A stretch of DNA of 64,000 nt from a virus (lineage: Duplodnaviria > Caudoviricetes). This document shows positions 54,883 through 57,612 of this stretch, in pieces. Location: IMG/VR virus record IMGVR_UViG_3300047469_000103, positions 128,001 to 192,000 of that record. One strand, 5' to 3'. A program made the translations under genes and the position numbers. Position 1 is the first letter of the stretch, and every line of letters starts with the position of its first letter. Below the pieces are notes generated by a model. It saw only the letters and a list, made by a program, of their open reading frames with translations. It was not told where the DNA came from and did not search any database.

Positions 54883-54908
54883 GGCAAGTCCTCTTCAGGT
54901 ATGTCATG

Positions 54909-54919
54909 TATTTACAGTT
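54909..54919 (-). promoter_or_regulatory. putative late-type promoter AACTGTAAATA
   Basis: TAAATA core as in T4 late promoters; 10-mer shared with 13801..13810. Confidence 0.45.
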
Positions 54920-54936
54920 TTACGCACCAACGAAAA

Positions 54937-54967
54937 AGCCCCCGAATCCGAAAGGAAACGAGGGCCG
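54937..54967 (-). terminator. intrinsic terminator
   Basis: GGCCCTCG...CGGGGGCT followed by TTTTCGT. Confidence 0.65.
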
Positions 54968-54970
54968 TCG

Positions 54971-55792
54971 TTAAGCATAGATCAAATCACGCACTTCAAA
55001 ACCTTCAAACGAATGCAACAGAACAAAGTCTGAATAATTCGTCGTTGTGTAAATCGCATCCGCCGTAGCCACTGCACCGTTCGCCAAGGAAAGCGCCGGG
55101 GCATTCAGGTCGGAGAAAACAAAAGTCCACACACCGTTTTTGCAGTTGAAGAAAACAGGCGATTGATCGTCAGTTGCATAGGCAGAAACAACAACGATTT
55201 CTTTAACCGCGTCGTACCACATATCCGTCACAGTGAAACCTTCGATATTCGTAACGCCTTCGGAGACAAGTTGCCCCATGCGCCCGCTGAAAGTTTCCAG
55301 AGTGTTTGGCGTGTTAACCGTCACATGGAATTTATTGCTAAACGCCATGTTAACCACACCTTCGCCCACGGTCACAACGTCCCACAATGGGCCGTACATA
55401 ATCCGACCGTCTGCTGTGCCGAACAGTGGAATTCCATTCACGTTTAACGACGATGTGAAAACCGTTGCGTCTTCGTGAACAGTCTGCCAAGTAGTGCCAT
55501 CAAATGATCGAATACCGAAACCGTTTTCTGCGACATAGAATTTCGTGCCGGAGAAAACCACGTGACTGCACTCACCAAAAACTACATCTTCAGCATTCCA
55601 GTCTTGCTTGTCAGTAGACGTAAAAATCCCTTCGCCTACTGCGACATAAATTCCTTTGCCCGTTGCAATGTCGTTTATTTTTGCTGGAACAGATGCAGGT
55701 ACAAAACCATCAGATGTTTGAACGTAAATTCCATCTTGGTTAGTACCTGAGCCACCGACTACAAATGCTTGTCGTGGAGCAGGTTTTACGAC
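54971..55792 (-). CDS. beta-propeller-like domain, predicted -1 frameshift extension of the 55786..56736 protein
   Basis: 273 open codons; first 77 contain no ATG/GTG/TTG; about seven blade-like repeats (GIYVAVGEGIFTSTDKQDW, FYVAENGFGIRSFDGTTW). Confidence 0.75.
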   Translation of the reverse strand, partial: VVKPAPRQAFVVGGSGTNQDGIYVQTSDGFVPASVPAKINDIATGKGIYVAVGEGIFTSTDKQDWNAEDVVFGECSHVVFSGTKFYVAENGFGIRSFDGTTWQTVHEDATVFTSSLNVNGIPLFGTADGRIMYGPLWDVVTVGEGVVNMAFSNKFHVTVNTPNTLETFSGRMGQLVSEGVTNIEGFTVTDMWYDAVKEIVVVSAYATDDQSPVFFNCKNGVWTFVFSDLNAPALSLANGAVATADAIYTTTNYSDFVLLHSFEGFEVRDLIYA

Positions 55793-55798
55793 TTTTTT
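55745..55798 (-). promoter_or_regulatory. programmed -1 ribosomal frameshift signal: A_AAA_AAG + 7 nt + stem-loop
   Basis: ACA AAA AAG TCG TAA; hairpin ACCTG-CT-CCAC-GAC-N11-GTC-G-GTGG-CT-CAGGT at 55784..55745. Confidence 0.75.
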
Positions 55799-56736
55799 GT
55801 GACGAACGCCGTTGCTTCAACGAGTACAGGTTCACCACTGCCAAACTTCGGCGTAGCGACCAGAACAATCGAGAATTCACCGAGCGGAGAACCAGCTTTA
55901 TTTCGTTCAACGGTTGACGGAATGTAATCGCTGATATGACGGAACGCGTACTGCTGAATCATTTGCGTAACAGACAGGTCGCCGTTGGTTGCCGAGTCAG
56001 CCACAACACGCGAGCCGCTGTTGTACCAAACGTAGTTTTTTGCAGTGCCGTTGTACGCCAGTTGCAAATCCCACTTCAGTGCATTTTCAGTGGCGGTCGG
56101 ATCAACGTCGATCATCAAAGAAATGTCGTACATATCCGTAACGTTTGGCACGTCAGGATTCAGCGAGCCGACGCTAACTGCAAACGTCCAGTTTTCCAGC
56201 GTATCCAATTCGATATCGAACGCGCCAGCGCCGTCACCGTAATAGGTCGCATCGTTGTATTTGCGAATTGCCAAACCCATTTCGATATCGGAGTTTTTAC
56301 CGATTACGAAATCGTCAGCCGGATTACCAATACCCGAAAGCATGTATTGTTTTCCGTCGTCGCCTTCAATAACAAAAGTGATTTCACCTTTGCCTGTTGC
56401 AACAAGCGGTTCATAACCAACGTCACCCAACGCGCCACTTGGAACGAATGGGCCGACAGCAATACAAATACCGCCCAAATACATCGACATGATTTTGCCG
56501 TCGATTGCAGTGGTGATGCCTTCCAGCGTCATTGCAGTTGTTGCGCCGTAATAGTTACTGATCGAAGTACGGAATGCTTGGCTATTAAAAATCTCCAACA
56601 TTTCTTCTTCGGTTACTTGAATGCGGCGGGTCTTCGGAGGGGAACCGGCTTCGTTAATGGCGGCGATGATTTGCGCCAAGACGCCTGTATAATCCTGAAC
56701 TTCCATAAGGGTTTCCTGTGTAATTAAGGAAGACAT
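55786..56736 (-). CDS. acidic beta-rich protein, probable virion component
   Basis: 316 aa; GGGAG RBS and TTTAAATA upstream; ends at the slippery site. Confidence 0.8.
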   Translation of the reverse strand: MSSLITQETLMEVQDYTGVLAQIIAAINEAGSPPKTRRIQVTEEEMLEIFNSQAFRTSISNYYGATTAMTLEGITTAIDGKIMSMYLGGICIAVGPFVPSGALGDVGYEPLVATGKGEITFVIEGDDGKQYMLSGIGNPADDFVIGKNSDIEMGLAIRKYNDATYYGDGAGAFDIELDTLENWTFAVSVGSLNPDVPNVTDMYDISLMIDVDPTATENALKWDLQLAYNGTAKNYVWYNSGSRVVADSATNGDLSVTQMIQQYAFRHISDYIPSTVERNKAGSPLGEFSIVLVATPKFGSGEPVLVEATAFVTKKS

Positions 56737-56746
56737 TATCTCCCTT

Positions 56747-56754
56747 TATTTAAA
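56747..56754 (-). promoter_or_regulatory. putative late promoter TTTAAATA
   Basis: One mismatch to T4 late TATAAATA; intergenic, 10 nt before the ATG. Confidence 0.4.
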
Positions 56755-56773
56755 AGGAGGACTCCCTATTAAA

Positions 56774-57097
56774 TTAGCGCTTTGCTTGATCCATAATGCG
56801 CGACCACATTTCGTTCGTGAAAACTTCTTTGTCGTCATGGAACTTTTCTACGTTATCGCCACACTGCGAACAGAAGTTTACGCGGATGATGTGGCCCGGA
56901 TGTGGCAATGCTTTTCGCGAGGTATTGAATTCGATTACCTGTTCACCGAATTCCTGAAGTTTTTCGCCCCAATCCTTTTTCGATACAGTCTTGCCTGCAA
57001 TCAAAGCGATAATGCACGCGCCCGGTTCACATGGTTTGATTATCCCGGCCTTTACTTCGTCGCGTAGCGTAGCGTTACAGCGTGCAGAAAGTTCCAT
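56774..57097 (-). CDS. hypothetical protein with CxxC
   Basis: VNFCSQCG. Confidence 0.75.
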   Translation of the reverse strand: MELSARCNATLRDEVKAGIIKPCEPGACIIALIAGKTVSKKDWGEKLQEFGEQVIEFNTSRKALPHPGHIIRVNFCSQCGDNVEKFHDDKEVFTNEMWSRIMDQAKR

Positions 57098-57352
57098 TTA
57101 TAGTTCCTCGTATTTAAACAAACGATACGCATGCTTTGTCATTTTCCAGCCTTCCAGCAATGCGACAAAGCCAGCCACCAAAACCAACACGCCCAACACA
57201 CAATAGGCGATTTCATGCTTTGTCATTTCGTGTTCGGTCATCCACTCAATACGCGCGTAGGACACGTAAGCGGAGAATGCGATAAGGGCAATCACTGCCA
57301 GATTAACAGTGGTGACAAACAGCAGAAAAACAATGCTAAAGAAACGATTCAT
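57098..57352 (-). CDS. two-TM membrane protein
   Basis: Start at TAATG overlap 57352 (MNRFFSIV). Confidence 0.75.
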   Translation of the reverse strand: MNRFFSIVFLLFVTTVNLAVIALIAFSAYVSYARIEWMTEHEMTKHEIAYCVLGVLVLVAGFVALLEGWKMTKHAYRLFKYEEL

Positions 57353-57612
57353 TAAAAGTAATCCGGGTAAACGTTCGGGTTGAATAACTTGCGCACCGTG
57401 CGAATGAGCAGACACACGGAAGCGACGATACCAACGCCGAGAAAAAAGAGGGGTAACATCACGCCAGCCGCCATCGAATAAGCGGCATGAACTGCAACGT
57501 CGTCGCGATGAAATTGCGAGTAGATAACGCTCAAAGTAATTCCGGCATAAGCCAGACCAACAGCCGCGATTGTGACGCACACCAACGAAATCACAATATG
57601 AAATAAGCGCAT
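57352..57612 (-). CDS. two-TM membrane protein
   Basis: Two hydrophobic helices; AAGGA RBS. Confidence 0.75.
   Translation of the reverse strand: MRLFHIVISLVCVTIAAVGLAYAGITLSVIYSQFHRDDVAVHAAYSMAAGVMLPLFFLGVGIVASVCLLIRTVRKLFNPNVYPDYF

Follow-up and report, generated by a model that had tools for sequence, protein, structure and literature searches.

A probable programmed −1 ribosomal frameshift that appends a predicted beta-propeller to a conserved protein of Lu11-like jumbo phages

Introduction

Programmed ribosomal frameshifting is a classical mechanism, and frameshift-appended display domains on phage structural proteins are already known. Fraser et al. reportedly described immunoglobulin (Ig)-like domains as frameshift-made extensions in 2006. 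C-terminal extensions of capsid or tail proteins that are made by frameshifting have been found in T3/T7 (10A/10B), in the Lactobacillus phage A2 and in the Listeria phages A118, A500 and PSA, and for the Ig-like display domains in-frame and out-of-frame arrangements are mixed among relatives (PMC5009743). Where both AAA and AAG are read by a single tRNA-Lys, as in decoding of the E. coli type, no heptamer is more prone to shifting than A_AAA_AAG (PMC5009743). Here, we analysed a stretch of 64,000 nucleotides (nt) of viral DNA (positions 128,001-192,000 of IMGVR_UViG_3300047469_000103), which is called the window in the following and to which the feature coordinates refer. Judging from its proteins, this DNA belongs to a Lu11-like jumbo phage. 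On the minus strand it carries a gene (P0001) from which a conserved programmed −1 frameshift at A_AAA_AAG would yield two proteins of 316 and 588 amino acids (aa), the longer one ending in a predicted seven-bladed beta-propeller. We put the probability of this frameshift at roughly 85%, and this figure applies to the frameshift itself and not to its functional interpretation.

The locus resembles the T3 10B/Ig-like class in that the shift is located near the 3' end of a putative structural-protein gene, in that a major short and a minor long isoform are expected and in that a surface domain would be added, which may be encoded in or out of frame (here 13 frameshifted loci and one in-frame locus). 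In contrast to this class, the module is a 273-aa seven-bladed propeller and not an Ig-like domain of about 100 aa, and the carrier, the virion location of which is inferred, is a jumbo-phage-specific protein related to gp9 of phage PAU and not a major capsid or tail protein. With the dnaX and IS3 cassettes the locus shares the heptamer and, by prediction, a downstream hairpin, the spacing of which is 7 nt here and 6 nt in dnaX, and slippage should hinge on the weak reading of AAG by a single tRNA-Lys(UUU). Unlike in dnaX, there is no conserved upstream stimulator resembling a Shine-Dalgarno (SD) sequence, and the shift lengthens the product whereas the dnaX shift truncates it. In the tail assembly chaperones (G/GT), too, a short open reading frame (ORF) has a conserved −1 shift close to its end that annotation routinely misses, but the present gene lies in no chaperone locus, has no tape-measure gene beside it and encodes a product of nearly 600 aa with a propeller. 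Finally, the homology with PAU gp9 does not continue past the frameshift site, and in gp9, too, a large C-terminal extension (about 486 aa) follows there. That extension is in frame, and we rejected it as a candidate relative of the propeller because sequence comparison showed no relation. New in the present case are the appended propeller, the PAU-gp9-like carrier and the Lu11-like jumbo phage group, and our literature searches retrieved no description of the frameshift for Lu11, HRDY3 or any other jumbo phage.

Results

Structure of the gene

The zero-frame ORF (55786..56736, minus strand), which encodes an N-terminal domain and is regarded here as a putative anchor, starts with an ATG at 56736 that is preceded by a good SD sequence (AAGGGAG), and it ends after 316 codons with a TAA (55788..55786). 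Its 3' end reads GTC ACA AAA AAG TCG TAA, and the slippery heptamer (55792..55798, minus strand) is found there in the zero-frame X_XXY_YYZ register (ACA AAA AAG), one codon before the stop. A TGA closes the −1 frame six to seven codons before the heptamer, and the overlap contains no ATG, GTG or TTG. This frame (54971..55792, minus strand) comprises 273 codons and a TAA (54973..54971), and its first canonical start codon is a GTG at 55561, 77 codons past the junction. The 77 start-less residues include VVKPAPR and QAFVVGGSGTNQDGIYVQTSDGFVPASVPAK; the Pro-rich linker VVKPAPRQ comes first and the predicted propeller follows. The trans-frame product would span ...ATAFVTKKVVKPAPRQAF... with the junction peptide ...VTKKVVKP. 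The ORF, the register of the heptamer, the −1 ORF and its start-less 77 codons had been described in an earlier sequence-only reading of this DNA; we re-read all of them and they hold, and the product sizes of 316 aa and 588 aa given there are correct.

A stem-loop (55745..55784, minus strand) starts 7 nt after the heptamer, exactly where it had been placed before, and we presume that it acts as 3' frameshift stimulator. It consists of 12 bp (5 + 7 bp, separated by a 2x2 internal loop, and one bulge) and folds with a minimum free energy of −15.3 kcal/mol (z −2.0). The motif AAAAAAG is under-represented in the window (15 copies, compared with 29.5 ± 5.3 expected from shuffles), a deficit that would fit avoidance of a motif prone to shifting. 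The occurrence of the heptamer alone is within chance, and its weight comes from its position and its conservation.

Conservation among related phages

Megablast of the region against phage genomes gave 0 matches, and relatives turned up only at the protein level. Here, the nearest isolates were the Pseudomonas jumbo phages Lu11 (54% identity) and HRDY3 (53%), and the orthologous protein was also present on metagenomic contigs of up to 300 kb. The P0001 orthologues share 40-86% identity and all have 302-312 aa. We read the junction in 15 orthologous loci, among them the isolates Lu11 and HRDY3, a single IMG/VR contig, three contigs from metagenomes and eight that were reached via a protein collection. 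Thirteen of them (46-85% protein identity, Lu11 and HRDY3 included) have the heptamer in frame, a predicted hairpin 7 nt downstream and a −1 ORF of 275-288 codons. In all 13 the heptamer is identical, lies in the zero frame and is located zero or one codon before the stop, and the −1 ORF is open from just upstream of it. The first start codons of these ORFs are scattered between 10 and 88 codons downstream of the junction, and the extension aligns from residue 1 in 13/13 relatives with 44-90% protein identity. Some of its best conserved motifs (VVGGSGT, GFVPAS) lie in the start-less segment. The remaining two loci (L009 and L013, 45-46% identity) have neither extension nor heptamer, and their N-terminal ORF is directly followed by a terminator. 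Thus, heptamer and extension are present or absent together. The heptamer position has decayed in both of these loci (L009 3427-3480, L013 2936-2990), and L013 reads G AAA GCG there. Conservation of the heptamer and of the predicted stem, which the earlier reading had suggested to look for in related phages, is seen in 13/13 extension-bearing loci.

GenBank lists the extension as a separate gene in both isolates. Lu11_0041 (L001 3918-4727) starts 40 codons inside the extension and XDJ15262 of HRDY3 (L002 3924-4730) starts 90 codons inside it, and both appear to be truncated calls of the frameshift extension. XDJ15263 of HRDY3, which overlies the end of XDJ15262, is probably a spurious antisense ORF.

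At shorter distance, this phage species is represented by four further assemblies, drawn from different samples, which differ from the DNA analysed here at 0-12 of 1766 positions; all of them read A6 at the heptamer and none has an indel. This answers the question whether the run might have six or seven As, which the sequence-only reading had raised, in favour of A6. Nearly all single-nucleotide polymorphisms within the species affect the third position of a codon in the frame concerned, and this includes all three in the start-less stretch of the extension.

Sequence constraint around the junction

In the 13 frameshifted loci the two Lys residues are always encoded by AAA AAG. The codon before them varies (ACA, GCA, GTA or TCA, for Thr, Ala, Val or Ser) and its final A is always kept. 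We aligned the codons of the fused frames and calculated in 15-codon windows how often sequence pairs that share an amino acid differ in its codon. Over the fused gene of about 580 codons the mean of this synonymous difference was 0.465, and the minimum of 0.14 was found at the junction. The twelve lowest 15-codon windows of the fused gene are all located there (0.14-0.21), and only 2/5000 column permutations reached so low a minimum. Suppression begins about six codons ahead of the heptamer and reaches about twenty codons past it, so that heptamer, spacer and hairpin are covered.

Past the hairpin and before any start codon (extension codons 21-45), the differences at codon positions 1/2/3 of the −1 frame were 0.23/0.14/0.50, and for the N-terminal ORF 0.30/0.24/0.52 were obtained. 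In the start-less −1 region conservation begins at residue 1, the codon positions show a coding-type pattern and the polymorphisms fall on third positions, and these sequence comparisons indicate that the region is coding and under purifying selection.

As for the stem-loop, RNAalifold on the 13 sequences yielded the same 12 pairs, and 96.5% of the cells can pair, compared with 21-46% when the 3' partner was slid by 1-3 columns. Most substitutions in the hairpin preserve pairing via wobble pairs. In the most divergent frameshifted lineage (L015) both arms carry several changes, and a perfect 13-bp stem is predicted at the same place (−32.2 kcal/mol, z −6.2). An apparently clean compensatory change in L011 (CGAC/GUCG to CUAC/GUAG) was dropped, since these positions form a U-U mismatch in the common register and a shifted register offers an alternative pairing. 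Folds of 130 nt gave no longer-range structure or pseudoknot that was consistent across the relatives.

An in-frame relative and the order of events

An exhaustive profile search with the extension identified a 582-aa protein (P0026, locus L019) in which both parts are fused in frame. Its residues 1-305 correspond to P0001 (41% identity, E-value 8e-72) and its residues 309-582 to the extension (37% identity, E 2e-42), and it is encoded on a 115-kb contig in the same gene neighbourhood. The junction (...ACC TAC AAA GAA CCG ACC CCG ACT CCG AAG AAA ACC TTC...) contains no slippery heptamer. A further search with P0026 for a second in-frame fusion returned only P0026 itself. It follows from this protein that the N-terminal part and the propeller function as one polypeptide and that the slippery site occurs only where a change of frame is needed. 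The sequence-only reading had named a plain in-frame fusion in relatives as a finding that would speak against a frameshift. One distant relative does have such a fusion, but without a slippery site, so that the frameshift at the other loci is not refuted by it.

In a tree of the N-terminal domain L009, which lacks the extension, branches first, followed by the in-frame fusion and then by the frameshifted lineages together with L013. From this order L013 has probably lost the extension secondarily, and a single origin of the frameshift is most likely. Since then, lineages with path lengths of about 1 substitution per site between them have retained it.

Predicted structure of the extension

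The AlphaFold2 model of the extension, which was built with a 16-sequence alignment, is all-beta with 27 strands and reached a predicted local distance difference test (pLDDT) score of 91.8 and a predicted template modelling (pTM) score of 0.89. Residues 1-9 (VVKPAPRQA) form a linker of lower confidence. The strands can be read as seven four-stranded blades that would be closed by the C-terminal strand; in this model blade 1 comprises residues 10-33 and the C-terminal strand 265-272, and blade 2 comprises residues 39-67. Since blades 1 and 2 lie in the start-less stretch, a product that is started internally would lack one or two blades and the closure, and its fold would be broken. Foldseek matched the model to propellers only (WD40, Ycf48, Kelch, a B. 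thetaiotaomicron protein), with template modelling (TM) scores of 0.6-0.72 in the PDB and of up to 0.78 among AFDB clusters, the latter including Ycf48-like, sialidase-like and viral fibre-like proteins. The propeller of about seven blades that had been proposed from the letters alone is thus borne out by the model, and an Ig-like extension is not what the model predicts.

Neither part of the protein had a match above threshold in Pfam or PHROGs, and the only Pfam match of the extension was PF23366 (16.8 bits, cut-off 27). Distant repeat-level matches of the extension were DUF6242/BNR-type surface proteins, and two blades show an Asp-box-like S-x-D-x-x-x-W. A role of the propeller as a binding module is a tentative suggestion, which we regard as rather doubtful.

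N-terminal domain and possible location in the virion

The N-terminal domain was modelled by AlphaFold2 with a pLDDT of 85, and its last strand (304-314) reaches right up to the frameshift site, which places the shift in an inter-domain linker. According to its model, the domain has a jumbo-phage-specific fold that is rich in beta-sandwich. A fold search of the PDB gave only weak partial Ig-like/beta-sandwich matches (TM about 0.25), and the predicted viral structures that matched it (Foldseek, BFVD) were the Lu11 orthologue, a Yersinia jumbo-phage protein, PAU gp9 and, more weakly, PAU gp10. For PAU gp9 (H9NBN6) an E of 1.4e-14 and a root-mean-square deviation of 4.0 over 212 columns were obtained. 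In sequence, residues 126-313 of P0001 align with residues 103-282 of gp9 at 28% identity (pairwise E 2e-12; tblastn E 3e-6).

PAU is a Sphingomonas phage, and the GenBank label of its gp9 (768 aa, JQ362498) reads 'capsid decoration protein (banana)'. A homologue in PA5oct (EST35_0383, a match of 30% identity) is labelled 'structural protein, ESI-MS/MS'. Cryo-electron microscopy of PAU showed an arch of extra density on the hexamers beside each vertex, for which no gene was named (PMC5646251). The link between gp9 and this peri-pentonal arch is at the level of the GenBank annotation and does not stem from PMC5646251. By homology with gp9, P0001 may be located on the capsid surface, and we consider the odds of this slightly below even. 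The sequence-only reading had placed the long product on a virion appendage; at the same annotation level, the capsid surface is the more likely site.

Since gp9, the PA5oct homologue and the relatives without extension share this domain, it may be an anchor that can stand alone or carry different display modules. Four predicted proteins from neighbouring accessions, perhaps from one phage genome (A0A7H0XAC6, XAE1, XAE6, XAE7; 349-639 aa), share the fold of the N-terminal domain, as does PAU gp10 ('internal capsid vertex protein'). These models hint at a multi-copy, capsid-associated family with variable C-terminal parts.

Transcription signals

A promoter-like motif (TAATTTAATA; 56767..56776, minus strand) lies 31 nt upstream of the ATG. 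Its conserved form, TAATTTAAT(A/G), was found 35-65 nt upstream of the orthologous ORF in 15/15 relatives examined, and it may act as a middle or late promoter of the phage. The motif extends by one further G (TAATTTAAT(A/G)G). The sequence-only reading had noted a late-type motif before the unit. The presence of such a motif stands, with TAATTTAAT(A/G) at 56776..56767 as the conserved element; the motif named at the time (TTTAAATA, at 56754) recurs only in the nearest relative. The unit is closed by an intrinsic terminator (54933..54965, minus strand; GCCCUCG...CGGGGGC followed by UUUUU), in agreement with the hairpin and T-run noted earlier, and an equivalent hairpin with a T-run follows the extension in 13/13 extension-bearing relatives. 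With the promoter motif before the N-terminal ORF and a terminator only after the extension, the sequence is that of one transcription unit. A second conserved motif (ACTGTAAATA, at about 54915..54906, minus strand), which is also present in relatives, lies just past the terminator and closely resembles CTGTAAATGGTAGG at the annotated 'putative middle/late promoter' of Lu11.

Gene neighbourhood

The neighbouring genes encode a dCTP deaminase, small proteins of unknown function and a DUF1353 protein, and there is no tape-measure gene among them. For this reason the locus is not a tail-chaperone locus, and since PHROGs and Pfam gave no chaperone match either, our data agree with the earlier reading on this point. 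Two genes upstream, a 160-aa ORF (57098..57580, minus strand) has a sub-threshold match to a holin family (PF07332, 18.4 bits, cut-off 28.4). In L015 (1-635) the upstream dCTP deaminase gene is split by an intein (598 aa; Pfam order DCD, Intein_splicing, DCD). The window contains no tRNA genes, and tblastn of the window detected no paralogues of either part of the protein.

Discussion

Taken together, the occurrence of heptamer and −1 ORF in 13/15 loci, their joint absence in 2/15 and the synonymous minimum at the junction argue for the programmed −1 shift with A_AAA_AAG, 3' hairpin and two products that the sequence-only reading had proposed. A ribosome that translates the 316-codon ORF would reach the heptamer with Lys tRNAs on AAA and AAG and would pause at the hairpin 7 nt downstream. 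A fraction of the ribosomes would then slip one base back, with the tRNAs re-pairing on AAA AAA, and would read VVKPAPRQ... for 273 codons to give the 588-aa protein, which would consist of the same N-terminal domain, the Pro-rich linker and the propeller. Non-slipping ribosomes would terminate two codons later and release the 316-aa form. In the virion the N-terminal domain would anchor the protein, perhaps on the capsid surface in line with the annotation of PAU gp9, and the propeller would be displayed by a sub-stoichiometric share of the copies, which the frameshift would keep fixed.

Several points weigh against this interpretation or limit its support. The 13 cases probably represent one event that was maintained by selection and not 13 independent events. 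Covariation in the hairpin is weak and not significant, as there is one double change and 79/500 shuffles equal it. At the corresponding place the in-frame relative, too, can form a modest hairpin (L019 3404-3467; −14.8 kcal/mol, z −2.0), which may be a relic or a by-product of conserved Gly-Gly codons, and hairpin potential alone is therefore not diagnostic. Because of these two observations, we base the presumed stimulatory role of the hairpin on its position, its conservation and the suppression of synonymous changes. An upstream SD stimulator of the dnaX type is not conserved. As for the location, the capsid assignment is inferred from the GenBank note on PAU gp9 and from the match with the PA5oct protein at 30% identity.

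Among the alternatives, transcriptional slippage survives best. If the polymerase added an A to the A6 run, the resulting A7 mRNA would encode the same 588-aa fusion in frame, with an identical junction peptide (...VTKKVVKP), and most of the comparative evidence fits this scenario too. Moreover, Lu11-like jumbo phages have RNA polymerases that have been little characterised. However, the run is invariably six As plus G in 13/13 loci, always in the X_XXY_YYZ register, and productive slippage by bacterial polymerases generally needs longer runs of about 8-9 or more (reviewed in PMC5009743). In addition, the conserved hairpin has the 7-nt spacing that is typical of ribosomal stimulators, and a polymerase needs no such features. 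We therefore consider slippage of the polymerase unlikely and prefer the ribosomal frameshift.

Separate translation of the propeller from an internal or non-canonical start, or by termination-reinitiation, is what the GenBank annotation of Lu11 (Lu11_0041) and HRDY3 implies, and gene callers do find internal GTG, TTG or ATG starts. Yet these starts occur at inconsistent positions (10-88 codons past the junction), and VVGGSGT, GFVPAS and blades 1 and 2 lie upstream of them. There is no start codon near the stop at which reinitiation could take place (GTC GTA / GTA AGT), a natural single-chain fusion exists in P0026, and two separate genes would leave the invariance of the heptamer and the synonymous-site minimum unexplained. 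This explanation is very improbable.

Slightly more remote still is a decaying gene, in which an ancestral in-frame fusion lost its frame through a 1-nt mutation, leaving the extension as a relic that is not translated. An in-frame relative does exist and branches before the frameshifted clade, but the −1 ORF is open for 275-288 codons in 13 lineages separated by as much as about 1 substitution per site, its substitutions are of the coding type, its protein identity is 44-90%, and in the true losses (L009, L013) the extension is deleted and the heptamer is gone. Finally, errors of homopolymer length are common in some sequencing chemistries and a true A7 would give a plain 588-aa ORF, but with A6 in four further assemblies of the species (no indels over 1766 nt), in two cultured isolates and in ten more metagenomic relatives, an assembly or sequencing error is hardly credible.

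For jumbo phages of this clade, Lu11 and HRDY3 included, the programmed frameshift would correct the annotation, in which the propeller is called as a truncated separate ORF or is left partly 'intergenic'. It would add a well-supported case of recoding beyond the tail-chaperone and major-capsid genes, with a compact cassette of a heptamer and a 40-nt hairpin, and it would mean that surface domains appended by frameshifting are not limited to small Ig-like modules and can be as large as a full beta-propeller. The natural series of an anchor alone, an in-frame propeller and a frameshifted propeller bears on the question why the ratio of plain to decorated subunits stays fixed. As an explanation that we offer as speculation and with limited confidence, the frameshift may be a dosing device for a capsid ornament, in which a PAU-gp9-like anchor occupies defined sites of the capsid in Lu11-like jumbo phages and a fixed minority of the copies carries a 30-kDa propeller with seven blades that binds a glycan of the host surface or of the environment. 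If this were true, the protein would be a larger, lectin-like counterpart of Hoc or of the Ig-like decorations, and there would be no steric room for propellers at full occupancy, and this would account for the retention of the shift, rather than a simple fusion, over deep divergence.

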